DNA from: a virus
Taxonomy: Duplodnaviria > Caudoviricetes
Direction: 5' to 3' (one strand)
Virus record (IMG/VR): IMGVR_UViG_3300028833_000112
Location: 1 to 64,000 of that record
DNA length: 64,000 nt
Below the pieces are notes generated by a model. It searched no databases. It was not told the DNA's origin and was given only the letters and a program-made list of their open reading frames with translations. The translations under genes were made by a program, and so were the position numbers. Positions 3,401 to 27,529 of this stretch are shown piece after piece. The stretch's first letter is position 1. The number at the start of each line of letters is the position of its first letter.

Positions 3401-4342
3401 TTCACATTGCCTGAAGCTGGCATGCCGCCCGAAATGCCGGATATCACCTCCATGACCGAACAAATTTATTCCGACCTTGAGGCATTGCAGGAAGGAGTCA
3501 GCGAAGTCTTTAGCGGATTCGGCGAGCAGATAACCGAACAGCTGACCACTGCCTTTGAAGGTGTCGGAGAAATTTTCGCCAATTTCGGCACGACAATCAC
3601 CGAGGGGCTCACGACGACTTTCACGGGCGCGGGCGAACAGTTTGCGCAATTCGGCACGATGATTAGCGAGGGCATGACGAGCGCACAGACGGCAGCCGAA
3701 TCGTCCATGACGGCAATTCAAACGACGTTCACGACGACGAAGGACACAATTCAAGCGGCATGGGGTGAACTGCCGGGGTTCTTCGCGAATGTGTTCAGCG
3801 GACTTGGTGGTGCGGCGTCGGCAGCAGGCGCGGCAATAGAAGCGGGGCTCACGGCTCCTATCGGCTCAATCATCGGCGCATGGCAAGGTGCGGCAGCTCA
3901 AATCAGCTCAATAATCAGTTCAATCAGCGCACAGGCGGCGGCCATGCCGAGTATACCCACGGGCGGCGGAAATATCCCTGCACATGCTGAAGGCGGCTTT
4001 ATCACTTCGCCTGAACTTGCACTCATCGGTGAAAAAGGTGCCGAATTAATTTTGCCGCTTACTGATAAAGAACGTTCGCGAGAACTTTTGCGGCAGGCGT
4101 CGGGCGTGCTCGGTTTGAACTCGGAGGAGGACGGCTACTCGATTAGCGGCGGCTCATCGGGCGGCGGCTCAATGTCCGTGTCCGTCGGAGGAATCACCGT
4201 GAACTTTGAAATCAACGGCTCCGATTCGACAGACATCATGGAGGCAATCAAAGGAAATATTCAAGAGATTGGCGACAAAGTTGCCGCTCAAATTTCTAAG
4301 TCGGTCGGAAATATTTTCCAAAATCAAATGGTCGTCGCGTGA
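404..4342 (+). CDS. Tail tape measure protein (TP901 family)
   Basis: 1312 aa, Ala/Gly-rich; FEQQMSKVQAI...AKDLG...ASDMLTDAM...GIKGSMAGT core; C-terminal HAEGG..ALIGEKGAE motif. Confidence 0.95.
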   Translation: MAGRTIEIDVILNDKTNGKVKGIQKDLQALDKQAERLNQRIKAVGLQKFAATLRLIDKVSDPASRINSLLKKIAGGTYRVTMRINDSALAGIRKIESALLRISGRAWSVAVNVKGAAMNKLNGMMSGALMGAGVFAPMAGMMGVGYGVGNAISSAASFEQQMSKVQAIRQLSKDSAEMKALTQQAKDLGMQTAWTRQQVGEAQYYQALAGWETPQILKATPHMLNLASAGGMDLGAASDMLTDAMTALGIKATDRFQNAQGKWIDEPEYFADMFAKVQAVSNTDLYQLKEATKYSASTIGTMFANIGGQEGVQARTEAARQMLIMAGLMANAGIKGSMAGTGINTIFNRLAGENRNTHFAERLLGLEHASENGNMLMPLDFIKAFRNKIQGGMSVDDFLQVAEELSGEKIHADTRRKINSTIENALKNGGKLGSSDMLKIGSMMAGLENAPKLMAMVFQDIEALEAKMNNVEGTAGQMAETMLDNLAGSFTKLGSAWDAFQQDLFTGTAGDGLRNFVDALTEILTRANNLFKDGIDIADFGKIIGDVVGRLKDKVMELDGIGSMLAGGALVMGLKKIISLGQSALNVFKGVGAAGATALGGTAAKGAAGAAAGMSVSTMNVKAGVVNLAGAVKGGGGGVAGTAGKGAAALTPVALAQQNLAKARAAQDTALAAAWAAPGVAWRQSALRMAQARTAQAETALVNARVAAYNEQIAKQKQALALAREESAVTSRFAGMKSAAGGAAAFAGLFSLLDVMSLKSANAERLAAAPEEQRAQIARENRKAEWEASVGGLGSVVGAAAGAALGSMIGPMGTMIGGIIGSVIGEKLGRFAGEEGAEREVTRTSNVSQDEIRKRVAGYKSETPPDYSFGQKPVQTNFDEYGDLFTAGRRMSHNLATVTTATAKTIEDYGVALENELAAKKAAEDLAWAKSRDFTFQWQGQNSAFEYYQQRAAEMAANPANFIQPKWGNVAHAAELNEEQMAQMAAMEGGTVASKVAAPFTLPEAGMPPEMPDITSMTEQIYSDLEALQEGVSEVFSGFGEQITEQLTTAFEGVGEIFANFGTTITEGLTTTFTGAGEQFAQFGTMISEGMTSAQTAAESSMTAIQTTFTTTKDTIQAAWGELPGFFANVFSGLGGAASAAGAAIEAGLTAPIGSIIGAWQGAAAQISSIISSISAQAAAMPSIPTGGGNIPAHAEGGFITSPELALIGEKGAELILPLTDKERSRELLRQASGVLGLNSEEDGYSISGGSSGGGSMSVSVGGITVNFEINGSDSTDIMEAIKGNIQEIGDKVAAQISKSVGNIFQNQMVVA

Positions 4343-6692: not shown

Positions 6693-7136
6693 TTGCCAAG
6701 TCTCTATCCAACGATAAATCTTCCTAAGCTTGTGGCTCCAAAGCCGCGGGCAACGGTGCGCACAAATCGTGTTGCGCCGTTTTTTAATTGGCTGACGGGC
6801 GAATTTGAATTCAATCCCGACGGCTCGCCGCGTATGGCAACACCCAAAGAAACTTACGAAACTTGGTGCATAAAAGTTTGTTCGACGGAGCGCGGCAGTC
6901 GTCTCGCCTACTCAGATAAGATTGGCACGGAATTCAACGCGTTGGCCGGCGTCGACGATAACGAGCGAGTCAAGTCTTCAATCATTAGAACGATAACCGA
7001 ATCGCTCATGGTTCATCCGCAGACGGCGTGGGTGAAGAATTTTTCCTTCCGAAACGTGGCGGATAATTTGTGGGTGTCGTTCGACGTGCAAGGTAAAAAT
7101 TTCGACACGCCGAGTCGGCTGGAGGTGAGTGTGTGA
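6693..7136 (+). CDS. XkdS/DUF2634-like baseplate protein
   Basis: WCIK...TERG..LAYS..IGTE...ITESL..HP motif. Confidence 0.85.
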   Translation: MPSLYPTINLPKLVAPKPRATVRTNRVAPFFNWLTGEFEFNPDGSPRMATPKETYETWCIKVCSTERGSRLAYSDKIGTEFNALAGVDDNERVKSSIIRTITESLMVHPQTAWVKNFSFRNVADNLWVSFDVQGKNFDTPSRLEVSV

Positions 7137-8443
7137 GCATAATTAAGTTTGAACTGCCCGAAGAATTCATAGACGCAACTTACGAAAAAATTTTGGCGCG
7201 GATGTTGGCGCGCGTCCCTGACCGGTATGACAAGACCGAAGGCGGATTCGTTTACGATATGATTGCGCCGACGGCTTTGGAGGTCGCCGAACTTATTCAG
7301 TTTTGGCTGGCTCTCGGAATAAAAACCAATTTTCATATTTGGGCTTCGGGGCGTTGGCTTGATTATCACGCGCATGATTGCGGCTTGACTCGACACGCGG
7401 CGACTCACGCTTACACCGATTTGACCGTCGAAACGAACGGCGCGGCAAAATTTCCTGCGGGATTTATTTTCTCTGTGCCAAGCGATGACAATAACCCCGC
7501 GATTGATTTTGAGGTCGTCGAAACGCACAGCTTCACGGAGGCGGGCACGTACACGATTCAAGTGCGCGCGGTCGACGCCGGGACAATCGGCAACGTTGCG
7601 GCGGGTTCGATTGTTATCATGAAGAATCCGATTAAGCCTGTCACTTCGATTACAAATTTGGAGGCGTCAACGGGCGGCGTTGAGGCTGAAAGCGATGATT
7701 CTCTGCGGCAGAGGATTGATGATTTTTACGCGGGACACGGCGCGAGCTACGTCGGCAACAAAGGCGATTATGAACGTTGGGCGCGGGAAATTGACGGCGT
7801 CGGTTATGCTCACTGCATTCCGTGTGCGCCAATGTGGTCAAGCTTTTTCAAAGTGCGCGACGCGAGCGATAACCCTGTGCAAGGAACTTTGGAGCTTCGC
7901 GCGGGTGATTCGCCGAACGAAATTAAAATCGTCGACATAAGCAGCACGGACGAAAATCCGCACACACTCACAGGCGAACTTGCTTATGACGGCGTGAACT
8001 CGGTGCGGCTGGTTATCGCGGATGGCAACGGCGACCCCGCCAATAACGTTTTGCTCAAGCAGGTGGAGGAATATATTTTCGGCACGGGACACAATGATTC
8101 CAAACGCCTTGCGCCAATCGGCGTGGCAAAGTATGAGGTCGTCGCGCCCGCGCTCGCCATGCTCAGTCTTGAACTCGACGTGCAATACGCTACCGGCGCA
8201 ACCAAATCGAAAGTGCGCAGTCGAATCGTTAAGGTCATGATGAATTTTATTCAGTCACTCAGCGACGACGACAATTTCTACGGCGAAATTAAATATTCAA
8301 AAGTCTCCGCGCTTATGAGCAGTGTCGCGGGCATTGAAGACTTCCGCAATTTGAAATTGAACGGCGGCACGATTAACGTTACCTTCCTGCAAGACGAAGT
8401 ACCGTTTATCGACGAGGAGCACGTGACGATTAACGCTTGGTAA
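7133..8443 (+). CDS. Baseplate J-like protein (XkdT)
   Basis: DKTEGGFVYDMIAP, GGVEAESDDSLRQR, GNKGDYERWAREIDGVG motifs. Confidence 0.92.
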   Translation: MSIIKFELPEEFIDATYEKILARMLARVPDRYDKTEGGFVYDMIAPTALEVAELIQFWLALGIKTNFHIWASGRWLDYHAHDCGLTRHAATHAYTDLTVETNGAAKFPAGFIFSVPSDDNNPAIDFEVVETHSFTEAGTYTIQVRAVDAGTIGNVAAGSIVIMKNPIKPVTSITNLEASTGGVEAESDDSLRQRIDDFYAGHGASYVGNKGDYERWAREIDGVGYAHCIPCAPMWSSFFKVRDASDNPVQGTLELRAGDSPNEIKIVDISSTDENPHTLTGELAYDGVNSVRLVIADGNGDPANNVLLKQVEEYIFGTGHNDSKRLAPIGVAKYEVVAPALAMLSLELDVQYATGATKSKVRSRIVKVMMNFIQSLSDDDNFYGEIKYSKVSALMSSVAGIEDFRNLKLNGGTINVTFLQDEVPFIDEEHVTINAW

Positions 8444-14823: not shown

Positions 14824-16800
14824 ATGGCTAAAATGCTCGCTTCTCATTCAATGCGTTTCGGCACAGATAATTTCGGCTGGAAAACGGATGCCTCTACAGG
14901 AGCTATTGGAAATTCAACTATCACGGGCGGCGGCTCGAAAAGCACAATTACATCCGATAACGGCACAACTACCATTGCCGACAGCTCGACGTTTACCTTG
15001 AGCACGGGCGGCGGCGGCAGCATTACCGTGACGGATAACGGCAGTGGAACCGTGACAATATCGGGCGGCGGTTCTGAAACGATTGAGGCTTCGGGCGGCA
15101 ACACCGATTATCAATCCATTCAAGACTCTGCCGGGAAAAATATTTTAGTCCAAGGCGCGGGCGGCAGAAATGTTGCCATTTATGTTGTTTTGCCCACAGT
15201 CGACGATGATGGCGACATGATTGACGAAACCGACGGCACGACCAGCTCAAACGGCTCGGCAGTGACCGCGACTTTTTTGAAAACTGCTTTGCTTAAAGGG
15301 ACACATGTCTGGCTCTGCAAAAATAAATCCGCTGTTTTGGGCTTTGACATCAAAGGGCAAAATTATAATTACAACAGCGATGAAATTAAATGCCGATTTG
15401 TTTTCAGGCACAGCGGTGACAGCAGCAAATATTATACTCTTCGCGCTGAGCAAAACCCCGACACAGGGAAAATTGAAGGTAAGCTTTGTGAGTTCAATTA
15501 TCCGATGGGCAATGACACCGACCGCCTCAAAAGTATTTTGGAGCACGGCAATCACGTCGGCGATATTTATACCATTGAAAGTATCCCCGAATTCGTCGGA
15601 TATAATATCTCACCGTTTTACGCGTTGCAGGCTCCATCTAATTCGGTCGTCGTTCCGTCCATTCGACTCGATTTAAAAACCGAAGTGGCGACCAACAACA
15701 ACGTCAAAGTTGTCGAGACCGAAATTTATCCGCTGGCTGTGAGCGGTACTGCGCCCATTGTCACTGACGTCATTATAGATGATGTCAGCGAAAACAATGC
15801 CTCCGTTACCGTGCTCGCACAAACTTTTGATTTGGAAGGTAACGGCTCAGGTTGGAAGTCCATTGACAGTATCATTAACTCTGAAGCTTATTCAATTCAA
15901 TTCCAAATTACCTACAACGTGACTGCCATTAACGGCGACAACATTGCCAAGCTCAATTCGATTTGCGTCAAACACACTTACGGCGAAATTCTTGTCAAGG
16001 GCATGACGTCTGACCTGTACACCGTCGCCAATGATTATGAAGTCCCGTTGCAAATGTGTTATGTGGTTGTTCGCCACGACCGCATTAATGAAGATTCGGA
16101 GATTGAAGCTTACGTGAACTTTATGCGCCCGACTAAACGCAGAGAAATGCTAAATGTGGGTTCGGGCACGGGCGAGCCGCAAGAAATTATCCTTGGCAAA
16201 AACAAAGTTGCCGACCCGAATATTGTCGCTTCCTCCTTGCGGCTTTACGCGACGCGCGCCAGAACCGACGACCCGATTCTTTTGCGCGACGACCAATATT
16301 CTTTCAGCAGCGACACCGGCGTCGTTACCACTACCATATCAAAGAACGTGCCCATTTATGCCAGCTATGATTACGACCATGACGCAGAAGATTGGTTGCC
16401 GATGACTAAAGAAACCACTCAGCCGCTCAATGACGCGGACGGGCGTTATTCCACTCGATTCACTTATGCTTTGCCTGACGCTCAAGCTCAAGGCAAAACC
16501 AAATCGAGTGTGCTCATCCGCTTGAAGCGCAAAACGGGCACCGTCACGAAAAAAACTTTGGGCACGGGCAACACTCACCGTCAAGTTTTCTTGCTCGACC
16601 ACGTCCCCGATGTCAGCACGATTAAATTCGTCAACGAGCTCACCGACAATGAAGATTCTTCAAATCGCTGGAGCTATGACGAAAATTTGAAGACTCTCTC
16701 TGTGTGGGCGGACAAGGGCAAAACCATTATCGTCAGCTACAGCTGGCAGGGCGAAGAATTTAATATTTATTCGGTCGCGTGCGGCTGGAGTATTGCTTAA
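14824..16800 (+). CDS. Tail/structural beta-rich protein
   Basis: 658 aa in the fibre block; Gly/Thr-rich N-terminus; repeated G.G.G..Q...L...SYD.....L..... modules. Confidence 0.65.
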   Translation: MAKMLASHSMRFGTDNFGWKTDASTGAIGNSTITGGGSKSTITSDNGTTTIADSSTFTLSTGGGGSITVTDNGSGTVTISGGGSETIEASGGNTDYQSIQDSAGKNILVQGAGGRNVAIYVVLPTVDDDGDMIDETDGTTSSNGSAVTATFLKTALLKGTHVWLCKNKSAVLGFDIKGQNYNYNSDEIKCRFVFRHSGDSSKYYTLRAEQNPDTGKIEGKLCEFNYPMGNDTDRLKSILEHGNHVGDIYTIESIPEFVGYNISPFYALQAPSNSVVVPSIRLDLKTEVATNNNVKVVETEIYPLAVSGTAPIVTDVIIDDVSENNASVTVLAQTFDLEGNGSGWKSIDSIINSEAYSIQFQITYNVTAINGDNIAKLNSICVKHTYGEILVKGMTSDLYTVANDYEVPLQMCYVVVRHDRINEDSEIEAYVNFMRPTKRREMLNVGSGTGEPQEIILGKNKVADPNIVASSLRLYATRARTDDPILLRDDQYSFSSDTGVVTTTISKNVPIYASYDYDHDAEDWLPMTKETTQPLNDADGRYSTRFTYALPDAQAQGKTKSSVLIRLKRKTGTVTKKTLGTGNTHRQVFLLDHVPDVSTIKFVNELTDNEDSSNRWSYDENLKTLSVWADKGKTIIVSYSWQGEEFNIYSVACGWSIA

Positions 16801-16813
16801 GGAGGCGAACACA

Positions 16814-16966
16814 ATGCCGGTTATCCGTAAACCACTCACCGAGGAGCAAAAGGAAATCCTCAGAAAAAAAGAAAAGCCGTCCGCTGAGGACGTGCAACAG
16901 GCTCAAGACCAATTGTTCATGTACTTGCTGAATAAAGTTGCCGAGCTGGAGGCGAAGCAGCCATGA
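16814..16966 (+). CDS. Small hypothetical protein (50 aa)
   Basis: AAGGAGG RBS; MPVIRKPLTEEQKEIL...KVAELEAKQP; ATGA overlap with next gene. Confidence 0.65.
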   Translation: MPVIRKPLTEEQKEILRKKEKPSAEDVQQAQDQLFMYLLNKVAELEAKQP

Positions 16967-19900
16967 AGCATTATTATCCTTACGCGCCGAACGCGCCGAC
17001 ACCGATTTACGGCGAAGAGCACGTCATTGAGAACGGGCAAATCCTCCTGAATCATATTCCGTTGGCTGACTCGATTGAAATTGAAGGATTCAGGCAAACC
17101 AATTCGGCCGTTCTCGTCGCGAATCAATTTTATTGCGCTTACGGCTCCGAATATTATTATCGCGAGGCAAATTGCATTGTTCGATTCAACGAGCTGCATA
17201 ACGGCGAAACTGTCCGCGTCAAATATCAGCAGGTCGGCACGATTATCACCGCCAATGACATGAACGAAATTAAAGCGCATTTGGAGAGCAGCGACCTGCA
17301 TTCAAGTTTTGTTTTGCCTGCCGCTTCCGCTGAAACGCGCGGCGGAATTCGTGTCGGGCGCGGGCTGAATGTCAGCGACGACGTTCTTTCTGTCGACGAA
17401 GAAATTTCTGCCATTACTCCTGCCACGCGCGACTCACTTGGCGGAATCATGGTCGGCAGTCGTTTGTCAATTACGGATGAGGGTGTACTTTCCGCGGACA
17501 CAATACCCACGGCAACCAACATTCGGCTCGGCGGCGTGGTCGTCGAATCGGACGCAAATATTGCTCGAACGATTGAAAGATATTTTCCCGCGAGCGGGGA
17601 AACTTTGCCCGTTCACACTCAGGCAATCGCCACGCGTAATTCTCTCGGCGTTGTAAAAATCGGCGACGGTCTTTCAATCACCGAAGAAGGTTTACTCACG
17701 GCTGACGCTCAAGATTTTACACTTACCCCGGCGTCGGCTGATTCGCTCGGCGGAGTAAAAATTGGCAGCGGCTTGTCAATCGACGCGAACGGAGTTTTGT
17801 CCGCTGACGCTCAAGATTTTACGTTGACTGCAGCCACGGCTGATTCATTGGGCGGTGTCAAAGTTGGTTCACGTCTCTCGATTGACTCGAACGGAGTTTT
17901 GTCCGCGGACGCGTTGCAAAGCGCAAGCACTTCGCGGCTTGGTGGAGTTGTCGTCGAATCCGACGCGAACATTGCCCGAACGATTGAGCGTTATTTCCCG
18001 TCGGTCACGGCTGATTCAGAAATTTTGCCCGTGCTCTCCTCAATCCCTGCTGCAACTCGTGAATCAATCGGCGGAGTGATTATCGGCAACGGGCTTTCGA
18101 TTACTGAGGACGGATTACTTTCAGCTGACGCTCAAAATTTTACGTTGACTGCGGCCACGGCCGAATCTCTAGGCGGGATTAAGGTCGGCAACTCACTGAC
18201 AATCACGAACGGCGTTTTGAATTATAATCTGCCGAACGCGAGCACCGTAACCAAGGGCGGCGTTGTTTACGCGGCGGACAATGATATCGCAAACACAATC
18301 GAAAGATATTTCCCGTCGGTTACGGCTGACACAGAAATTATCCCGGCGTTGACTTCGATTCCCGTTGCCACGGCTGAATCACTCGGCGGAGTAAAAATCG
18401 GCAACGGCTTATCGATTACCGAGGACGGATTACTTTCGGCGGACGCTCAAAATTTTACGCTCACTCCTGCCACGCGTGATTCGTTGGGCGGTGTGAAAAT
18501 CGGCGCGCGCCTCTCGATTGATTCACTCGGCGTCCTTTCGGCGGACACGGTTCAAACTTACACATTGACTGCCGCAACCTCTGATTCATTGGGCGGCGTC
18601 TTCGTTGAGTCTGACGAAAATATTTCGCGCACGATTCAAAAATATTTCCCGACGGTCAGCGCGGATGAAATTATTCCTGTGCTCACGTCGATTCCTGTTG
18701 CCACAAACGAATCTCTCGGCGGAGTTATCATCGGCGACGGCTTGACGATTTCGGAGAACGGAATTTTATCAGCCGAAGCTCAAACGTTCACGCTCACGCC
18801 CGCAACTCATGACTCGCTTGGCGGGATAAAAGTTGGCGACGGCTTGTCAATTACGGGCGGCGGTGTCCTCACGGCTCTTGCGCAAGATTTTACATTGACC
18901 GCAGCGACCACAAGTTCTCTCGGCGGAGTGAAGATTGAATCGGATGAGAACGTCGCCACCATGATTGAAAATTATTTCCCAAGTGATTGGGAATTTGTCC
19001 CGGCGTTGACGTCGATTCCGCCCGCAACACATGAATCACTCGGCGGGGTTATCGTCGGCGACGGCTTATCAATCACGGACGGCGGTTTGCTTACGGTTGA
19101 TTCGGTTGCGCCTTACACTTTGCCCGCCGCGTCCGCTGACTCTTTGGGCGGAGTAAAAATCGGTACGAGCTTGACTTTCGTCAACAGCGTGCTCGATTAC
19201 AATTTGCCTGTCGCCTCTTCGACCACACGTGGCGGAATTAAAATCGGACGCGGGCTCACGATGACGGGCGAAATTCTTTCAGCCGATGCGCAAGACTTCA
19301 CGTTGACTGCGGCGACCACTGATTCACTCGGAGGAGTGAAGATTGCCGGCGACGCAGAAATTGCCGCCATGATTGAAGAATATTTCCCGACGGTCAGCGG
19401 CGAAACGATTGCTCCGCTGTATTCGATTCCTGCCGCAACTTATGATTCGCTTGGAGGGATTATTCCCGGTGTCACCATGTCCATCAAAGACGGCGTGCTC
19501 GATTACTATCTGCCCACGGCAAGTTCAACTCAGCTCGGTGGCGTGAAAATCGGGCGCGGGCTCACGATAACGGACGGATTACTTTCAGCCGACGCACAAG
19601 ATTTTACGCTCAAGCCCGCGACCACAAGTCAACTCGGCGGAGTAAAAATCGGCGCGCGGCTTTCAATCACCGCAGACGGAATTTTATCCGCCGATTCGGT
19701 TGCGCCCTACACACTGCCCGCCGCCAGCGACGAAGAAATTTCTTCCATGATTGAAGAACATTTTCCCGAATCGCTGACGCCTGAGCCGTTTACATTGCCC
19801 GCCGCCACGAGGACTTCACTCGGCGGGATTATCGTCGGCGACCGCTTGACGATTTCAAATTCGGGCGTCCTCTCCGCGAATGTGCAGTCTTACACCTTGC

Positions 19901-20175
19901 CCACGGCTTCCGCGTCGACTAAGGGCGGCGTGAAAATCGGCAAGGGCTTGACAATGACGGGCGAAGTTCTTTCGGCGAACGCGGACAATTATACTTTGCC
20001 TGCCGCAACCACTGATTCACTCGGAGGCGTGAAGATTGCCGACGACGCAGAAATTTCTGAGATTATCGAACGATACTTCCCCGCGAGCATTGAGGCGGGC
20101 ACGATTATGGGCGTGCAGTTCGTCGAAGATTCCGACGTCAACACAATGCTCAATAATGTTTTCCCGAACAGTTAA
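16963..20175 (+). CDS. Repeat fibre protein (head-fibre-type repeats) with nine interspersed helical motifs
   Basis: About 19 full ~34-aa repeats (LxxATxxSLGGVKIGxGLSIxxxGxLSA) with a D..I...IE.YFP-type motif after every 2-3 repeats. Confidence 0.85.
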   Translation: MKHYYPYAPNAPTPIYGEEHVIENGQILLNHIPLADSIEIEGFRQTNSAVLVANQFYCAYGSEYYYREANCIVRFNELHNGETVRVKYQQVGTIITANDMNEIKAHLESSDLHSSFVLPAASAETRGGIRVGRGLNVSDDVLSVDEEISAITPATRDSLGGIMVGSRLSITDEGVLSADTIPTATNIRLGGVVVESDANIARTIERYFPASGETLPVHTQAIATRNSLGVVKIGDGLSITEEGLLTADAQDFTLTPASADSLGGVKIGSGLSIDANGVLSADAQDFTLTAATADSLGGVKVGSRLSIDSNGVLSADALQSASTSRLGGVVVESDANIARTIERYFPSVTADSEILPVLSSIPAATRESIGGVIIGNGLSITEDGLLSADAQNFTLTAATAESLGGIKVGNSLTITNGVLNYNLPNASTVTKGGVVYAADNDIANTIERYFPSVTADTEIIPALTSIPVATAESLGGVKIGNGLSITEDGLLSADAQNFTLTPATRDSLGGVKIGARLSIDSLGVLSADTVQTYTLTAATSDSLGGVFVESDENISRTIQKYFPTVSADEIIPVLTSIPVATNESLGGVIIGDGLTISENGILSAEAQTFTLTPATHDSLGGIKVGDGLSITGGGVLTALAQDFTLTAATTSSLGGVKIESDENVATMIENYFPSDWEFVPALTSIPPATHESLGGVIVGDGLSITDGGLLTVDSVAPYTLPAASADSLGGVKIGTSLTFVNSVLDYNLPVASSTTRGGIKIGRGLTMTGEILSADAQDFTLTAATTDSLGGVKIAGDAEIAAMIEEYFPTVSGETIAPLYSIPAATYDSLGGIIPGVTMSIKDGVLDYYLPTASSTQLGGVKIGRGLTITDGLLSADAQDFTLKPATTSQLGGVKIGARLSITADGILSADSVAPYTLPAASDEEISSMIEEHFPESLTPEPFTLPAATRTSLGGIIVGDRLTISNSGVLSANVQSYTLPTASASTKGGVKIGKGLTMTGEVLSANADNYTLPAATTDSLGGVKIADDAEISEIIERYFPASIEAGTIMGVQFVEDSDVNTMLNNVFPNS

Positions 20176-20178
20176 GAG

Positions 20179-20376
20179 GTGATTGGCGTGACGATTTTGA
20201 GCAGAGAACCCGTCAGCGCGGAAGACCAGAAAAAAATCGAAGATATCTTTCGCGAATCGAAATGCCCGCATGAATCGCTGAGCAAAACTTTCGAACGATA
20301 CAGCGGCATGATTGGCAGCGTGATTATCTTCGACAACGTTGAACTCGCTGAACTAAAAGACGACCTGCCCGATTAG
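20179..20376 (+). CDS. Small hypothetical protein
   Basis: 65-aa ORF in operon, followed by a hairpin and T-tract. Confidence 0.5.
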   Translation: MIGVTILSREPVSAEDQKKIEDIFRESKCPHESLSKTFERYSGMIGSVIIFDNVELAELKDDLPD

Positions 20377-20404
20377 GGCTTTTTTATTTGGAAGGGGTGA
20401 TTCA

Positions 20405-20788
20405 ATGCTTTACACACTTACGAGTTCTTTTACGCGCTTGAGTGAAACCACGGGCACGATTCAAAATTCCAGCCAGCACTCGATTGAAGTTTCCAATCAA
20501 GAAGTCTTCGGGACGGGCGTCGTGATTAAGCCGGGAGAAACTTTTTCTTTCAGCAATGCGAATCTCTTTGCGCGCTGTGAAGGGGCTAAAGCTGTCGTCC
20601 GCGTCGTGCCCTTCGTTTTGGGCGCGGGCGGCACGTCCTCAAGTCCAAGCACGCCCGATTACACCGGCGACGTGGAGGACATGTGGAATGATTCGGGCGA
20701 CCCCACTCAAGAAATGTGGGACAACCCGACTGACGAGCCTTATGACGATGAATTTGACAAAGTTATCGATGGCATTTACGGCTTATGA
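20405..20788 (+). CDS. Small structural/decoration protein with acidic C-terminal helices
   Basis: Beta-rich N-domain, then DVEDMW / EFDKVIDGIY motifs. Confidence 0.6.
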   Translation: MLYTLTSSFTRLSETTGTIQNSSQHSIEVSNQEVFGTGVVIKPGETFSFSNANLFARCEGAKAVVRVVPFVLGAGGTSSSPSTPDYTGDVEDMWNDSGDPTQEMWDNPTDEPYDDEFDKVIDGIYGL

Positions 20789-20846
20789 AATGAATTAGCA
20801 CAAAACATTGCCGAGGCTGACACCGATTTTATAGGAGGTGGCGAGT

Positions 20847-21116
20847 ATGGAAGGGGAATTTCTACTCAAATTATTGATGAATGTCGGTGCGCCTGTCGGC
20901 ATTTGTTTTTACACACTTTACGGCGTAAACAACACCTTGAAAGAACAGGATAAAACTTTCAAGGAGCTCACTAAAGTCATGGATATTTTTACCAAAGAAA
21001 TTGAGCGGCGCGATTATGAGCACGCGACCAAGCTTGAGCGGCTCGAAGAAAAAGTGCGCGACCTTACTTTCAAAGTTGATGCTCACTGCCATTCGAACAA
21101 TTCAAGCAAAGATTAA
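20847..21116 (+). CDS. YvrJ-like membrane protein, probable holin
   Basis: LLMNVGAPVGICFYTL hydrophobic segment (YvrJ NVG.P pattern) followed by coiled coil. Confidence 0.6.
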   Translation: MEGEFLLKLLMNVGAPVGICFYTLYGVNNTLKEQDKTFKELTKVMDIFTKEIERRDYEHATKLERLEEKVRDLTFKVDAHCHSNNSSKD

Positions 21117-21197
21117 TTTGATTCATTCTCTCGTTGACTGCAGCAGCGTGGAGTCTGATAGAAGTTGTTAACTTATTTTTTTAGGAGGAATTTTTTT

Positions 21198-22097
21198 ATG
21201 GCTTACAACGCTAACGACATTGCAAAACTCGGTCACCTTGCGTCCCTCGCGAGCAAAACCAAAGCGGCTATCGACGCACTCGACGCCAAGTATGACGGCG
21301 TGCAAGAGAACGTTATCGAAACCGTCAAGGTCAACGGCACTGCTCTGGCTGTCACGGCTAAGACTGTCAACATCGACCTGACCGATTACGCTCTCAAGTC
21401 CGACATCGCCAGCGGCCTCCGCGTCAAAGGTTCCGTCGCTAACTTCGCGGCTCTGCCCGCAGACGCAACTGTCGGCGACATGTACAACGTCACGGCGGCG
21501 GGCGGCACTGACGAAAACGGCGTCGCTATCAAAGCCGGTGATAACGTCGTCAAGACGGAAACGGGCTGGGATAACTTCGGTGGCACTGTTGACCTGAGCA
21601 ATTACGTTCAGAAAGACGGCGCGAAGCAACTCAGCACCGAGGACTTCACCACCGCGCTCAAAACCAAACTCGAAGGCATTGAAGCCGACGCCGACGTCAA
21701 CATTATTGAATCCGTCAAGGTCGACGGCACTGCCCTCACTGTCGACGCCAACAAAGCTGTCAACATCGATTTGAGCGGCAAGGTCGACAAGGTTACGGGC
21801 AAAGGCTTGAGCACCAACGATTACACGACCGCAGAGAAAAATAAACTCGCGGACATCGCTGAAGGCGCGCAAGTCAATGTCATTGAGGCTGTGCAGGTCG
21901 ACGGCACCGCGCTGACTGTCGGTACGGGCAAATCCGTCAACATCGTGCTCAGCGGCAAAGTTGATAAGGTCACGACCGCGACCACCGGCAATATCGTGGT
22001 CTTCGGTGCGGGCGGCGCGCTCGTCGACAGCGGCGTGAAGTTCGCCAGCGATACCGACGTCAACGCCATGCTGGAGGAATATTTCCCCACGGCTTAA
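21198..22097 (+). CDS. Fibre protein with N-terminal HLASLA helix and C-terminal SDTDVNAMLEEYFP motif
   Basis: Three NVIE.VKV(N/D)GTAL.V...VNI.L repeats; GKGLSTNDYT repeats; strongly C-ending codons. Confidence 0.8.
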   Translation: MAYNANDIAKLGHLASLASKTKAAIDALDAKYDGVQENVIETVKVNGTALAVTAKTVNIDLTDYALKSDIASGLRVKGSVANFAALPADATVGDMYNVTAAGGTDENGVAIKAGDNVVKTETGWDNFGGTVDLSNYVQKDGAKQLSTEDFTTALKTKLEGIEADADVNIIESVKVDGTALTVDANKAVNIDLSGKVDKVTGKGLSTNDYTTAEKNKLADIAEGAQVNVIEAVQVDGTALTVGTGKSVNIVLSGKVDKVTTATTGNIVVFGAGGALVDSGVKFASDTDVNAMLEEYFPTA

Positions 22098-22135
22098 TCG
22101 TTGCTTGAAAACTTTTCTATCCATACACTTTGAAG

Positions 22136-22171
22136 GCGGGCGGGCTGATAACTCGTCCGCCGAATTTTTTT
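22136..22171 (+). terminator. Intrinsic terminator-like hairpin
   Basis: GGCGGGCGGG...CTCGTCCGCC then GAATTTTTTT. Confidence 0.65.
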
Positions 22172-22185
22172 AGGAGGAAAAAATT

Positions 22186-23115
22186 ATGTCCGATAATGTT
22201 GTTCTCTCCAAACACTTTGATTCTCTGGCTTCCGCGATTCAGCGTTGCCTCTCGGCAGGGTATGCTCCCACTGCTTACATCCCTGCCGGGCACGAGAGCG
22301 TAATTGATAACGTTGCTTCGACCGTCGATGGCGGCATGTGGTACGAAGTCAACGGCAACATCCCTACTTTGAAAATGCACTACGGCAATCGCGATTATGT
22401 TGTCAATCTCCTTATCAACAACGACGCTTACCTTGTGACCGATTTGAATTTCAGACGCCGCTATGTGATTGACGAGGACACAGGCGAACTTGTTCCGAGC
22501 GGCGGTCAATGCAGTGATTTGTGCGGCGGTACTTGGACGCAATCTTGGAGTGGCGGCGGCATGGATGTTTTCACGGCACCCAACGGCACTCTTTTTTTGG
22601 GCATTGATTTATCGTACAAAGGGTATACATTGACGCAGAATGAGGATTTTAATCTCGGCGGGCAAGACTTCACGATTTCTTTCTGGTATAAACTTGGAGC
22701 CATGGCGAACGGCGAAAGAAAATTCTTTACCATGTACAGCGGTTCAAGCTCTGCCGATTTTGTTATTTACTTCTCCGTCGATTCCACTCGGTCAAGTTTA
22801 CAGCCGGGCGTGAAACTTTTCGGCTCGACCTATTTAAGCGATACCGTAACCACTGCCGTCGAAAACGCTCACTTCGAATTGGATTACGTTCACGAAACAA
22901 ATTCTCTGAAACTTTTCATTAACGGCGAACTGAATTATACAATCTCCCACGCCGTGCCGCTGACAACTTTTAATCCGTTGGTGCTCGGAATCCCGTCCGA
23001 TGATTCGGGCGACAGCACGTCCGGCATTTCCATTGCCGAATTTAAAATTTATAACGGCATTGCACTTCACGCGGATAATTTCACGCCGACTTATACTGCA
23101 TTGAGCGCAAGCTGA
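22186..23115 (+). CDS. Adhesin with C-terminal LamG/concanavalin-A-like domain
   Basis: KHFDSLA N-helix; VDGGMWYE module; LGGQDFTISFW...LKLFING...IAEFKIYNG...NFTP. Confidence 0.8.
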   Translation: MSDNVVLSKHFDSLASAIQRCLSAGYAPTAYIPAGHESVIDNVASTVDGGMWYEVNGNIPTLKMHYGNRDYVVNLLINNDAYLVTDLNFRRRYVIDEDTGELVPSGGQCSDLCGGTWTQSWSGGGMDVFTAPNGTLFLGIDLSYKGYTLTQNEDFNLGGQDFTISFWYKLGAMANGERKFFTMYSGSSSADFVIYFSVDSTRSSLQPGVKLFGSTYLSDTVTTAVENAHFELDYVHETNSLKLFINGELNYTISHAVPLTTFNPLVLGIPSDDSGDSTSGISIAEFKIYNGIALHADNFTPTYTALSAS

Positions 23116-23130
23116 TGAGGAGGCGAGACC

Positions 23131-24087
23131 ATGACTAACGGCACGCATGCAGCACAAAGCAAGCACCTTGATTCACTCGCCGCCGCCGCCAAGCGTTATG
23201 TCCTCTCTGAGATTTTGGACGTGACCACTGCCGTTTCAGCCGAACTCGACAGCATTGCCGACGTTGAATTCATCGAAGGCACGCAGACCGCTTCCACCGG
23301 CGCATGGACGGGCGTCACCAAAGACAGCGCGCTTTACAAAGGCAAAGTCATTATCTACAAACTTCCTTACGCGGGGTCGGGCAACGCGACGCTCAACTTA
23401 ACTCTCGCGGGCGGAACCAAGACCGGCGCGAAAGCTGTTTACCGCTACGGCTCCACGCGCCTTTCCACTCAATACGCCGCAAATTATTACATTCCGCTCA
23501 TTTACAACGGCACTTACTGGTTTGCGCTCGCCGATTACGATGTCAACTACTACGACCGAATCCGCGTCGCCAATGCCATTGCCACTGCTTCGGGCGCGGT
23601 TCAAGCTGTGTGCTTCGTCGGCTCAACCGACGGCACGAACTATAAGCAACTCTCCGCGGGCGCGACCTTCGACGTAACTTATCCCGTCTACTACAACGCC
23701 ACCGCCGTTGCCGACGACGCTGCCATGTCCACGGGCTTGTACTTCGCTATCGGCTCGGTGAATCTTCAAACCGCTATCGGTGACACGACCCGAACTTTCA
23801 CCGCTCAATGTCCCGTCTACCTGAAAGGAACTTTGTCCGGCTCAACCTTCACCGTGCACAGCGATATCCTCACGACCACCGCGCCCACGACCGCCGACGG
23901 CTTCACTTACCTCCGCGTCGGCTTTACTTACGACACCTACCGAGCTTACATTATGCTTTTTGATAATAAATTTTTCGCTTACGTGAACGGCGCGTTCCAA
24001 GAAATTTCGACCGCCATTCCCTTCGTCAGCGATTCCGACGTCAACGTCATGCTCGCGAGTGTTTTCGGCTCCGAGTTTGTTTCTTAA
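23131..24087 (+). CDS. Adhesin/fibre protein with N-terminal KHLDSLA helix and C-terminal SDSDVNVML motif
   Basis: GTQTASTGAWTG...ATLNL...GAKAVY...LIYNGTYW fibre domain. Confidence 0.75.
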   Translation: MTNGTHAAQSKHLDSLAAAAKRYVLSEILDVTTAVSAELDSIADVEFIEGTQTASTGAWTGVTKDSALYKGKVIIYKLPYAGSGNATLNLTLAGGTKTGAKAVYRYGSTRLSTQYAANYYIPLIYNGTYWFALADYDVNYYDRIRVANAIATASGAVQAVCFVGSTDGTNYKQLSAGATFDVTYPVYYNATAVADDAAMSTGLYFAIGSVNLQTAIGDTTRTFTAQCPVYLKGTLSGSTFTVHSDILTTTAPTTADGFTYLRVGFTYDTYRAYIMLFDNKFFAYVNGAFQEISTAIPFVSDSDVNVMLASVFGSEFVS

Positions 24088-24102
24088 CCGAGGAGGGATT
24101 TT

Positions 24103-25473
24103 ATGAACAACGGATTTAATCCCGTCCGCGCCAAACACCTTGAATCAACCGCGAACGTTGCCAAAAGTTTTCTTGCGGCTCAAATTTCGAGCGTGACCGC
24201 TGCCGTGTCCTCCGAACTGGTTAACTTGGACGGCATGACTCTTGATACCGTTCAGCCTGCCGTCAACGGCGCGCTTTGGTATCAGCTCGTCGACGGCGAA
24301 CCGCAACTGCGTATCCATTACGGCGACCACGATTATTCACTCGATAACAGCCCCGGCTTAACCGTCACGCTCAACACCGGCTCAGAAATTTCCTACGGCA
24401 CGCCTGCCACTGCCACGGTTACTTATCGCGGCTCAGGTGTGCTTACCGTTTCGGCGAGTGATTCCAATGTCACGCCCGCTTACTCCGACGGCACGATTAC
24501 AATTCCTTGGGCGGCTGTCACAGGCTCGATTACAATCACTGTCAGTCTTGCCTCCGATGGTACTTACATTGCCGAAGAAAAATCTTTCACCGTCTCCATG
24601 CTCCAAAATAATCCTGAACTGACCGTCACTCCCGCGGCGACCACATTGAATCTTGCGGGCACCACCGCTTCAGTCACGCGCAACGGTTCAGGCGCGATTA
24701 CGGTTTCATCCGATAACGCGGCTGTCACACCCACTGTCAGCGACACGACGATTACGATTCCCTACGCCGTCTTTGATGAGGACACCGACGTTACTTTCTC
24801 CGTGAGTGTTTCGGCTGATTCGGGCTACGCGCCTGACACGAAAACTTTCACCGTCACTTACGTCAGCCCGTGCGTGGTCAACATGCCGTTCACTTCTTCC
24901 GTTACCGAAGATTTGGCGGGTGGCACGTGGACTGCTTCCGGCTCGCCGTCAATTTCAGACAAACAACTTTATTTGAACGGCTCAAGCTATCTGTCCAAGA
25001 GCGGCGGCATTACTCTCGGTGGGAAAGATTTTACTGTTTCTTATTACGTGTTGGGCAATTCGTCATCAAGCACAATCGGGATTTTCTCTTTTACCGCCTC
25101 CGAATCATCCGCTGGTACATATAGGATTTTTTGCTACTTGTGGCACCCCGGCGTAAGCGGAATACACACAGGAATTTGCCTTAATTCAAATACTTACACG
25201 AATGTCGTAGGTAATTTTGGAGGCGCGTTACATCACATTGCTCATGTCTACGAACATAGTAAGTCTACATTTAAAATTTATATCGACGGTGTTTTGAAAA
25301 GCACTCAATCCAACATCTCGCTTTCGCGAACTACTTATCCTTATGCCCGTATCGGTACCTCGCCCAGTTTAAGCGAGGGTAAACTTCAAGGTTACATTGA
25401 CGATTTCAAAGTTTATGACGGGGTGGCGTTGCACACGGCGAATTTCACGCCGCCCGCTCGTTCTTCAACTTAA
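24103..25473 (+). CDS. Adhesin: two Ig-like beta repeats plus LamG domain
   Basis: KHLESTA N-helix; VNGALWYQ module; LGGKDFT...HHIAHVY...IYIDG...GYIDDFKVY. Confidence 0.8.
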   Translation: MNNGFNPVRAKHLESTANVAKSFLAAQISSVTAAVSSELVNLDGMTLDTVQPAVNGALWYQLVDGEPQLRIHYGDHDYSLDNSPGLTVTLNTGSEISYGTPATATVTYRGSGVLTVSASDSNVTPAYSDGTITIPWAAVTGSITITVSLASDGTYIAEEKSFTVSMLQNNPELTVTPAATTLNLAGTTASVTRNGSGAITVSSDNAAVTPTVSDTTITIPYAVFDEDTDVTFSVSVSADSGYAPDTKTFTVTYVSPCVVNMPFTSSVTEDLAGGTWTASGSPSISDKQLYLNGSSYLSKSGGITLGGKDFTVSYYVLGNSSSSTIGIFSFTASESSAGTYRIFCYLWHPGVSGIHTGICLNSNTYTNVVGNFGGALHHIAHVYEHSKSTFKIYIDGVLKSTQSNISLSRTTYPYARIGTSPSLSEGKLQGYIDDFKVYDGVALHTANFTPPARSST

Positions 25474-25485
25474 GGAGGCGATTTT

Positions 25486-26934
25486 ATGACTAATGGAAAC
25501 AACGCGGCGCAAGGCAAGCACCTTGAATCACTTGCCACCGCGACCAAACGATACATCCTCGCGCAAATCCTCGACGTGACCGACGCCGTCAGCTCCGAAC
25601 TCGAAAATGCTTCGGGCTCAGGCGTGCTCGACACAGTCCCCGCCACAGTCAACGGCGGCATGTGGTATGAACTTAACAGCGGCGTCCCTCGATACGTCAA
25701 GCTCAAGCACGGCGACCACACGCTCAGCTTAACGCCGTCAATCGTCAGCATTTCTCCGAACTTGACCGTCACGCCCGCGGCGACACTCGTCCCCGGCAAC
25801 GGCTCGATTACCGCGACCGTCTCTTACTTGGGCACAGGCACGATTACCGTCAGCGGCTCCGATGGCGTTACCCCGACTTACAACGCCTCGACCAAAGTCG
25901 TCACCGTGCCTTACAACGTCAACACGCACACCGCGACGATTACCGTGTCACTCGGCGCAAGCTACGGCTACCTCGCCGAAACCGCGACCTTCAATGTCAC
26001 CATGGATAACGTGAGCCCCAATTTGACTGTCACACATTTAAACTATGGTGAGACGCCTGAATATCCCGGTCATTATTCTGTCTCGTATTTAGGGGACGGA
26101 ACGATTTCAGTTGCCACGGATAATGAAAATATCCAGCCGACTTACGATTCTTCCACAAAGATTATCACTACGCCTTTTTATTATCCCGGTGATGCTTACA
26201 ACGTTGAGTTTAACATTATTGTGACTGTATCACCAAGCGGCAATTACTCAGGGCAAACGGTTACGCATAAAACATCACAGGGCTGCGGTACGGCTGCGCG
26301 TATTTGGAATGTGGGTAGAATTACAGACTCAGTCTTTTACCCGCCCGCTGACCATAATACCGTAAATTACGGTTGGCAAACGTACACAGGCACTCCTTCT
26401 TTTACATCGCGCGGTACTGTTGTTTTCGACGGGGAAACTATTTTGTACAAACCGGATTTCCCCCTTGGCGGGCAAGATTTTGTTCTGAAGTTCTGGGCAA
26501 AATATGAATATGACGTCACGGAACGTACGCGTGCAAAAAGTTTTTATTGGAACGGGCTTGAAATCAGCAACAACTATAACATGTTTCAGTTTCAATACGG
26601 AAGTAAATCGCGCTCCCTTGGTTCCCCGAACGGCATAACTAATTATGAGTACGGCGAATGGATTTATCATTGCGCAATTTATCTCCACGCGGAGCAAACT
26701 CTTACACTTTATATTAACGGTAAACAAGGCATGCAACTTACCGATGTATCAATCCCGCGTACTTCCGCTACACTGTATCTCGGCGGGTATGACCTTAACT
26801 ATGACCATTATCGGTTTAAAGGCAGTATCGATGACTTAAAATTGGTGGAAGCTCCCCGTGCTTGGTGGGAATTGGAAGGCTTCGACCAGTACATTGATGG
26901 CTATTACTATACAAACACCAAACCAACTGATTAA
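25486..26934 (+). CDS. Adhesin: two Ig-like beta repeats plus LamG domain
   Basis: KHLESLA N-helix; VNGGMWYE module; LGGQDF...W...LYING...FKGSIDDLK. Confidence 0.8.
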   Translation: MTNGNNAAQGKHLESLATATKRYILAQILDVTDAVSSELENASGSGVLDTVPATVNGGMWYELNSGVPRYVKLKHGDHTLSLTPSIVSISPNLTVTPAATLVPGNGSITATVSYLGTGTITVSGSDGVTPTYNASTKVVTVPYNVNTHTATITVSLGASYGYLAETATFNVTMDNVSPNLTVTHLNYGETPEYPGHYSVSYLGDGTISVATDNENIQPTYDSSTKIITTPFYYPGDAYNVEFNIIVTVSPSGNYSGQTVTHKTSQGCGTAARIWNVGRITDSVFYPPADHNTVNYGWQTYTGTPSFTSRGTVVFDGETILYKPDFPLGGQDFVLKFWAKYEYDVTERTRAKSFYWNGLEISNNYNMFQFQYGSKSRSLGSPNGITNYEYGEWIYHCAIYLHAEQTLTLYINGKQGMQLTDVSIPRTSATLYLGGYDLNYDHYRFKGSIDDLKLVEAPRAWWELEGFDQYIDGYYYTNTKPTD

Positions 26935-26959: not shown

Positions 26960-27529
26960 ATGAAAGGGATTGACGTTTCAGTTTTCAACGAGAATGTCGA
27001 CTGGCAAGCTCTGAAGGACGCGGGCATTGACTTCGCCATCTGCAGGACGGGCTTCGGCAAGAGCGGGCTCGACGAAAACTTCCAACACAACGTCGAGGAG
27101 GCTCACAAGGCGGGACTCATTTGCGGGGCGTATCACTATTCCTACGCGTTGACGCCCTCTGACGCCATTACCGAAGCTCTTTTCTGCAAGCGCATTATCG
27201 CCGAAGCCGGGGTTTTGCTCGAACTGCCCGTGTTCTTCGATATGGAGGACGCAGACGGTTACAAATCTCGCCACGGATTTTCTTTCACTCGACGCAATGT
27301 GACTAACATCTGCCGCGCGTTCATCGATTCAATTAAGCCGCTCGACTGTGGAGTTTATGCCTCTTGCTCGTGGCTGGAAGATTGGATTGACTGGCAATCG
27401 CTTGGTTGCCCCGTGTGGAATGCAGCATGGAGCGGGCATGATGACATCAAAGGATTCTGTTGGCAGTTCACGGACGAAATGCTTATCGGCGGCAAAAAGT
27501 TCGACGGAAATATTTTGTACGGGAGATAA
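26960..27529 (+). CDS. Endolysin, glycoside hydrolase family 25 (catalytic domain only)
   Basis: MKGIDVS...GAYHYS...PVFFDME...GVYA...W.A.W...WQFT. Confidence 0.92.
   Translation: MKGIDVSVFNENVDWQALKDAGIDFAICRTGFGKSGLDENFQHNVEEAHKAGLICGAYHYSYALTPSDAITEALFCKRIIAEAGVLLELPVFFDMEDADGYKSRHGFSFTRRNVTNICRAFIDSIKPLDCGVYASCSWLEDWIDWQSLGCPVWNAAWSGHDDIKGFCWQFTDEMLIGGKKFDGNILYGR

Follow-up and report, generated by a model that had tools for sequence, protein, structure and literature searches.

In the long tail fibre of phage T4, the separate proteins gp34, gp35, gp36 and gp37 are joined end to end and are encoded in the order of their assembly. In CBA120-type phages, the conserved N-terminal modules of TSP1-4 assemble several receptor-binding proteins into one baseplate complex. 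A branched tailspike complex is documented for the Ackermannviridae (PMC11414711). In KP32, K11 and KP34, which are podophages of Klebsiella, residues 1-29 of the receptor-binding protein RBP2 dock on a T4 gp10-like branching domain of RBP1; incorporation is lost when the peptide or its docking partner is deleted, and the peptide can carry foreign heads behind it (PMC13352976). Here, we analyzed a window of 64,000 nucleotides (nt), the first 64 kb of the 94-kb IMG/VR virus record IMGVR_UViG_3300028833_000112, and in it a block of genes (16963-26934) in which a short motif, M1, ends some of the proteins and a helix, the N-helix, opens others. This phage of a rumen bacterium seems, as do many gut phages, to assemble its fibres for host recognition from separate proteins placed end to end, and M1 and the N-helix probably form the joint between them.

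The five window proteins that share an N-terminal helix ahead of different bodies recall the KP32-type arrangement by analogy, not by homology; no sequence similarity to the KP32-type system was found with Pfam or PHROG. The KP32-type acceptor is a folded domain inside RBP1, whereas the putative acceptor in the window is a helix of 12-14 residues at the C-terminal end of a protein, often repeated on flexible tails. Sequence profiles of Pfam and PHROG detected no gp10-like branching domain in the 1070-amino-acid (aa) fibre of the window, only phi29-type repeats and tail-fibre families. The joints would moreover run serially through three or more proteins, and the hosts are Negativicutes and Clostridia. 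Docking of the CBA120 type uses position-specific folded N-terminal domains, and the T4 joints are pair-specific without a reusable motif, whereas the window system would use one generic peptide pair; no homology to either was detected. The likeness to phi29 gp8.5 lies in the rod repeat (98.6 bits), but the capsid-binding base is absent from the window fibre and most fibres with the repeat carry no M1.

The original prediction, made from the window alone, had described a cellulosome-like system. This likeness holds as logic, a scaffold with repeated acceptors and cargo with a common plug, but not as domains, since none of ten proteins matched cohesin or dockerin in Pfam, and cohesin-dockerin membership was rejected. 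The window acceptor would be a peptide rather than a domain, and its multi-site use is doubtful. The peptide-pair grammar had also been regarded as undescribed. This stands for the pair itself, which appeared in no paper, Pfam or NCBIfam entry searched (a full-text search with the motif strings gave noise only), but not for the principle, which was demonstrated by experiment in Klebsiella podophages (PMC13352976). Conserved-peptide docking is thus already established in Klebsiella phages, and the present case extends a known theme with a predicted joint that is generic across Negativicutes and Clostridia phages and has no detectable sequence kinship to known systems.

Results

M1 and the N-terminal helix in the window

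A six-frame search by regular expression with the M1 pattern, D-x-x-[IV]-x-x-M-[IL]-x-x-[VY]-F-[GP], found 11 copies in the window: nine in the 1070-aa fibre, one ending the protein encoded from 21198 and one ending that encoded from 23131. The pattern of the N-helix, [KG]H[LF]xS[LT]A, was found only at 21231, 22210, 23161, 24133 and 25516, and neither pattern had any further occurrence in the six frames. The nine fibre copies and the single copies at the ends of two downstream proteins had been predicted, and the scan placed them within 6 nt of the predicted coordinates. An M1 profile of 22 columns (A6) gave 26-40 bits on all 11 copies; its matches in 69 viral loci at 12 bits or above numbered 152 on the coding strand and 0 on the opposite strand. 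The copies are as follows.

Fibre M1 copy 1: D at 17551, aa 190-211, nt 17530-17595
Fibre M1 copy 2: D at 17962, aa 327-348, nt 17941-18006
Fibre M1 copy 3: D at 18277, aa 432-453, nt 18256-18321
Fibre M1 copy 4: D at 18613, aa 544-565, nt 18592-18657
Fibre M1 copy 5: D at 18943, aa 654-675, nt 18922-18987
Fibre M1 copy 6: D at 19351, aa 790-811, nt 19330-19395
Fibre M1 copy 7: D at 19729, aa 917-937, nt 19708-19773
Fibre M1 copy 8: D at 20044, aa 1021-1042, nt 20023-20088
Fibre M1 copy 9: D at 20128, aa 1049-1070, nt 20107-20172
M1 of the 21198 protein: D at 22050, C-terminal end of 21198-22097
M1 of the 23131 protein: D at 24031, C-terminal end of 23131-24087

The N-helix starts within residues 1-12 of the proteins that carry it. 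A shared N-terminal helix had been proposed for five genes; all five were recovered, but the extent needed correction, as four of the five share a domain of ~40 aa rather than 11 residues. Laminin_G_3 (PF13385; threshold 27.6 bits) was matched by the 22186, 24103 and 25486 proteins only, at 41.3, 45.2 and 31.9 bits, in agreement with the earlier division into three LamG proteins and two without LamG. The membership of the set was correct for the named copies but had overlooked a sixth member, the 127-aa protein at 20405-20788, which ends in degenerate M1-like units. The members of the block are listed below.

16963..17292, plus strand: N-terminal attachment domain (aa 1-110) of the 1070-aa fibre; 33-36% identity to the N-domains of short anchors
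17293..20175, plus strand: rod of the 1070-aa fibre; eight super-repeats and a 28-aa end piece; PF11133, 98.6 bits
20405..20788, plus strand: SET-domain small anchor protein (putative), 127 aa; domain that we labelled SET aa 1-76, degenerate M1-like tail aa 77-127 (nt 20633-20785)
21198..22097, plus strand: putative E-type extender, 299 aa; type b N-helix nt 21198-21305, C-terminal hairpin and M1 (M1 nt 22029-22094)
22186..23115, plus strand: putative cap protein, 309 aa; a-type N-helix nt 22186-22302 (profile 57 bits), LamG head PF13385 (E 2.3e-10)
23131..24087, plus strand: putative plug-plus-socket protein, 318 aa; a-type N-helix nt 23131-23256, widespread receptor-binding body, C-terminal M1 nt 24010-24075
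24103..25473, plus strand: putative cap protein, 456 aa; a-type N-helix nt 24103-24228 (profile 67 bits), repeated beta modules, LamG head PF13385 (E 1.4e-11)
25486..26934, plus strand: putative cap protein, 482 aa; a-type N-helix nt 25486-25608 (profile 77 bits), repeated beta modules, LamG head PF13385 (E 1.7e-7)

At the nucleotide level, the C-terminal M1 copies of the 21198 and 23131 genes (22041-22072 and 24022-24053) are 91% identical over 32 nt, and recent copying of the M1 tag between the two genes is possible. The N-helix regions are 72% identical over 132 nt, well under the value for the C-terminal M1 copies.

Gene order around the E-type family

The 21198 protein belongs to a family that we labelled E-type, consisting of a type b N-helix, a variable body, a C-terminal hairpin and M1, with a length of ~180-340 aa (alignment A7). 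It matched phrog_38190 (E 1.7e-18), whose function is listed as unknown in PHROGs, and scored 58 bits with the N-helix profile and 40 bits with M1. Searching 1.84 billion representatives with the A7 profile gave 1545 clusters (50% identity) at E ≤0.001, and 140 at E ≤1e-30. Neither the E-type family nor the 127-aa protein matched Pfam or NCBIfam, and in the PDB no relevant sequence match was returned for the fibre, for the E-type protein or for the profiles of M1 and the E-type family.

Gene order was then analyzed in 69 loci from an IMG/VR scan with the E-type alignment together with earlier loci, which were dereplicated at 80% identity to 26 E-type lineages. The gene just upstream of the E-type gene ended in M1 in 17 of the 26 lineages, compared to 48 of 948 other genes (crude calling of open reading frames, ORFs; Fisher p 2e-15, uncorrected for shared ancestry). 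By eye, the remaining nine upstream genes were mostly ORF-calling artefacts or degenerate M1. Just downstream, an N-helix profile match was observed for 7 of 25 genes, compared to 9 of 377 others (p 1e-5, likewise uncorrected for shared ancestry); most of the other downstream genes also open with an amphipathic helix that is too divergent for the N-helix profiles. Outside the window fibre, M1 was located 0-14 residues from the C-terminal end in 25 of 29 M1-bearing proteins and in 28 of 32 profile matches (first 19 loci). Co-occurrence and terminal position of the two motifs across phages had been suggested as a check; M1 was mostly C-terminal, the N-helix was N-terminal and their order recurred among the 26 lineages at the frequencies given above.

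The closest relatives of this phage are prophages in metagenome-assembled genomes (MAGs) of rumen Selenomonadaceae. In five Selenomonadaceae prophages (L007, L009, L021, L023 and L024), a small M1-ended protein is followed by an E-type protein, one to three a-type proteins and an endolysin. In L009, a helix starts each of seven consecutive genes, and every gene but the last of these ends in M1 or a shortened M1. FP_Taranis, a cultured myophage of Faecalibacterium, encodes a baseplate-attached tail fibre ending in M1, followed by an E-type protein, a 137-aa helix-started protein and the target protein of a diversity-generating retroelement (DGR). A study of Faecalibacterium DGR prophages reported neighbouring target proteins of unknown role and did not mention the M1 and helix ends (PMC11792537).

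Two further arrangements were observed in these prophages. In L009:10295-14345 (G003:C12), behind a 632-aa chain-end protein with a DUF6273 C-terminal end come a 153-aa protein and a reverse transcriptase (RVT_1, E 6e-12); this is probably a DGR that diversifies the chain tip, as in FP_Taranis. In L021:16551-17519 (minus strand), two small proteins adjoining the capsid genes start with a third helix type (G-L-x-x-F-K-x-x-Q-D) and end in a short M1 form (A-E-I-D-A-M-F).

M1 as a portable tag and the fused proteins

M1-ended proteins were found in unrelated families, i.e., tail fibres (phrog_27381 and phrog_7037), phrog_33094 (104 aa), phrog_19695 (186 aa), SET-domain proteins and a head-tail adaptor. 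Homologues of the 127-aa SET-domain protein in L024, L066 and L057 have a clear M1 at the end. In L059 and L060, a gp6-like head-tail adaptor (Pfam Phage_connect_1 at aa 4-78; together with phrog_40, aa 1-97) has a C-terminal extension that ends in a hairpin and M1. Next to it, inside the head module, come an E-type gene and then a receptor-binding protein. The whole chain of these siphovirus-like prophages (L059:5608-7674 and L060:5943-7814) is flanked by the major capsid gene on one side and by head-closure genes on the other, a placement suggestive of neck or collar fibres. In many anchors, two or three M1 units are parted by linkers rich in Pro, Glu, Asp and Gly; judged from sequence, such tandem units have the appearance of docking peptides and not of rod elements.

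Fused proteins were also identified. The SET domain is fused straight to the E-type body in 13 of the best 150 E-type representatives, none of which has the type b N-helix or M1 at the junction. In representative P0216, aa 1-77 are matched by aa 1-76 of the window 127-aa protein (43% identity, E 2e-16) and aa 87-223 by aa 37-176 of the E-type protein (51% identity, E 3e-43), and nine residues stand at the junction in place of the M1 tail and the first 36 E-type residues. P0216 ends in LamG without the a-type helix. Similarly, P0188 carries on from the E-type body to that of an a-type LamG protein (42%, E 8e-71; alignment from residue 42 onwards in the L007 protein), and both the E-type M1 and the a-type helix are missing. 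The fused order of SET domain, E-type body and LamG indicates the polarity, with the SET domain proximal and LamG distal, and by comparison with the fused proteins the split sites fall exactly after a C-terminal M1 and before the next N-helix. We regard the fused forms as the strongest computational argument that M1 and the N-helix would make the joint.

One M1-like peptide was observed in a defence protein. This protein, a fused Septu of 638 aa encoded at L067:486-2402 in a Selenomonadaceae MAG (G193:C220), combines PtuA ATPase (E 1e-101) with PtuB/HNH (E 2e-61) and contains V-A-T-D-E-A-V-N-D-M-L-D-E-V-F at aa 84-98 (19.7 bits), which could be due to chance or could be a bait for phage fibre plugs.

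The 1070-aa fibre and its anchor family

The fibre ORF (16963-20175) encodes an N-terminal domain of ~110 aa, eight super-repeats of 105-137 aa and a 28-aa end piece with the ninth M1. Each super-repeat comprises two or three repeats of the phi29-head-fibre type and a truncated repeat running into M1. The original prediction had placed the motif after every 2-3 beta repeats, which was borne out, except that each internal M1 stands in place of a phi29-type repeat's second half and closes its super-repeat. PF11133 (phi29 gp8.5 head fibre) scored 98.6 bits against a cut-off of 24.6; the match was confined to profile positions 223-245, many times over, and did not include the N-terminal capsid-binding base. 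The gene follows tape-measure and baseplate genes in a contractile-tail baseplate context, not a head module.

The N-domain of the fibre aligns at 33-36% identity with short anchors in L058 (229 aa), L130 (247 aa) and L062 (239 aa), in which 2-3 tandem M1 units follow the N-domain in place of rods. The window fibre thus amounts to the short anchor with rods inserted between its M1 units. Among the best 120 homologues of the rod, internal M1 (7-9 copies) was present in the five closest relatives only; since the other 115 carry none, M1 as an intrinsic element of phi29-type rods was rejected. In the fibre anchor family, whose numbers are small, an E-type gene comes next in 5/5 members with M1 compared to 1/4 members without M1. 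The 1070-aa fibre was not found in the assembly of the nearest MAG, and single-protein and short-alignment scans of IMG/VR for it found nothing.

The N-terminal helix and a-type proteins

The a-type helix (K-H-L-E-S-L-A...) is rare, with ~17 proteins in a collection of 5.8 billion. It was strong in 6 of 262 Selenomonadaceae genomes, and all six were among the 23 genomes carrying M1. No match to it was found in Pfam or NCBIfam, and single-protein and short-alignment scans of IMG/VR found nothing. A JGI metagenome scan was likewise negative. In the relative P0007, a 23131-type body is inserted between the a-type helix and the following beta element; because this separates the two, the helix is the real shared unit. 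The 23131 body also occurs in more than 200 proteins with other, quite different N-termini, indicating that these proteins are modular. A tblastn search of cultured phages with the 23131 protein gave no match.

The 23131 body is common in gut metagenomes (P0010-P0120), in proteins of 451-454 aa with a different N-terminus (M-A-I-K-A-S-A-...), which appears to be another attachment system for the same head. In L023:9724-10059 (minus strand), a 111-aa protein opens with an a-type plug, behind which stand four tandem M1-like units (D-F-D-S-A-L-D-S-A-F), and is a candidate one-to-many adaptor.

Structures predicted with AF2 showed M1 as a helix of 11-12 residues and the N-helix as one of 21-28 residues. 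For the E-type protein, the mean predicted local distance difference test score (pLDDT) was 50, and the best parts were helix 5-32 (~75) and hairpin 265-281 with helix 285-295 (~80), so that the model was read solely for secondary structure at its two ends. For an L023 protein with M1 directly after the helix, AF2 placed one helix at 3-23 and, past a break, a second at 29-40 with low confidence, and modelled the LamG jelly roll with confidence; both helices had a pLDDT of 50-60.

Setting of the block

Upstream of the block, a tape-measure gene (404-4342), genes for a LysM-type tail protein and a baseplate hub, J-like genes of the baseplate wedge (7133-8443) and more tail-fibre genes form a module of a contractile-tailed, PBSX-like phage. 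The other features of the region are as follows.

14824..16800, plus strand: 658-aa protein before the anchor fibre, conserved as upstream partner in this anchor family; its C-terminal end matches proteins that precede homologous anchors in L058, L061 and L130; no match in Pfam, PHROG or NCBIfam
20838..21116, plus strand: 92-aa small membrane/coiled-coil protein, holin- or XhlA-like on weak evidence (sub-threshold Pfam matches to YvrJ and DUF948 only)
22135..22161, plus strand: terminator-like hairpin, 10-bp stem (8 G-C pairs) and then a run of T; separates the E-type gene from the four a-type genes
26960..27529, plus strand: GH25 endolysin (PF01183, E 2.2e-22), downstream edge of the block

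With the strong terminator-like hairpin at 22135-22161, transcription of the caps may be independent of that of the fibre or may depend on read-through. Small membrane/coiled-coil (holin- or XhlA-like) genes occur within the fibre-segment blocks, not only in the window (20838-21116) but also at L007:1933-2392 and L021:11336-11912. Several plug proteins are therefore placed between lysis genes and the endolysin, an odd site for virion genes.

Discussion

The block probably encodes a host-recognition apparatus made of separate proteins that would be joined non-covalently. In the proposed arrangement, the proximal protein would end in at least one M1, a short capped amphipathic helix, the next protein would open with a helix of 25-40 residues, and the two elements would form the joint, most plausibly as a small helical bundle with three M1 helices around an N-helix trimer. 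The 1070-aa fibre and the 127-aa SET-domain protein would be anchors, the E-type and 23131 proteins extenders, and the three LamG lectin-like proteins distal caps. We hold a terminal M1/N-helix joint between fibre proteins to be probable. The two motifs occupy terminal positions, their gene order is conserved, M1 is portable among protein families and fused forms exist; from these we infer the physical contact, the geometry and the assembly order. Docking of the N-helix on the motif, with extenders and LamG end caps, had been claimed in the original prediction, and it is supported in part, through indirect, comparative evidence from gene order, from the portability of M1 and from fusions that lack both elements.

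Several observations weigh against this joint. The gene-order counts are not phylogenetically independent, and some N-helix proteins, among them small ones in L007 and L021, lack an M1-bearing gene upstream. The a-type N-domain bears an M1-like second helix of its own, and a 248-aa relative in L023 has a true M1 directly behind the N-helix, so the a-type plug may cap itself. P0216 retains an M1-like helix at its second junction, between the E-type body and LamG. Furthermore, M1 is near-identical in all phages while the N-helices are diverse, and no cognate pairing or concerted evolution of M1 was detected: similarity was 0.604 for within-locus pairs and 0.602 for between-locus pairs, with no co-variation.

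Absence of partner co-variation is also what a role in folding would predict, in which M1 with its preceding hairpin is a foldon-like C-terminal trimerisation nucleus, the N-helix is a coiled coil and attachment occurs via other surfaces. M1 indeed follows a beta hairpin at the C-terminal end of trimer-type fibres, foldon-like in position and size; in the internal copies the hydrophobic face alone is specially conserved (five fibre orthologues: 0.955, with the rod otherwise at 0.863 and the exposed face at 0.82), and a Fibritin_C cluster was found among the ESM Atlas feature look-alikes of the E-type protein (a lead only). We nevertheless consider this explanation unlikely, as it accounts neither for tandem M1 on the flexible tails of non-fibre proteins such as the head-tail adaptor, nor for the joint loss of the M1 tail and N-helix in the 13 fused forms, nor for the lack of M1 in 115 of the 120 related rods. 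If like instead paired with like, M1 with M1 and N-helix with N-helix, the extenders would be reversed and attached through the C-terminus. The division into anchors with M1 only, extenders with both elements and caps with the N-helix only fits this equally well, and the near-universal M1 sequence is as expected of a self-associating unit. Such pairing is very improbable in our judgement: the fused order of SET domain, E-type body and LamG puts the split sites between M1 and the next N-helix, and fibres would have to be attached by their C-termini, contrary to the usual polarity of tail fibres.

Hardest of all to credit is the possibility that the conserved ends are mainly recombination linkers for module swapping, with no docking role. 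The occurrence of the 23131 body behind many unrelated N-termini and the 91% identity of the two C-terminal M1 copies over 32 nt speak for it; but the N-helix regions reach just 72% nt identity over 132 nt, M1 is conserved as protein across distant phages of Negativicutes and Clostridia, and neither the strictly terminal position of M1 nor the fusions would be predicted.

The original prediction went further and treated the fibre as a multi-site branched scaffold, in which each of the nine M1 nodes takes a trimeric plug, giving a brush of lectin heads and extenders on one fibre. This part was unsupported, and we regard it as doubtful. The fibre end would offer two terminal sockets, the E-type and 23131 proteins one apiece and the 127-aa protein one to three degenerate ones; together these match or exceed the five plugs, so internal copies are not needed as branch points. 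The exposed face of internal M1 showed no extra conservation in the five fibre orthologues, and because the fibre axis is occupied at an internal node, coaxial docking is unlikely. If true, a virus particle would bear in this brush a cellulosome-like, combinatorial adhesin, and its generic peptide socket would be common to thousands of gut and rumen phages.

If the terminal joint is real, common 'hypothetical' genes of gut and rumen phages, such as the ~1,500 E-type clusters, would be segments of one modular fibre, connected through a generic socket and plug. This would explain how receptor-binding heads, including DGR-diversified tips and LamG lectins, are exchanged and stacked. It would also give annotators two short profiles by which fibre components can be recognised, and would point to residues for work on host recognition in phages of anaerobes, a group that for the most part is not yet culturable.

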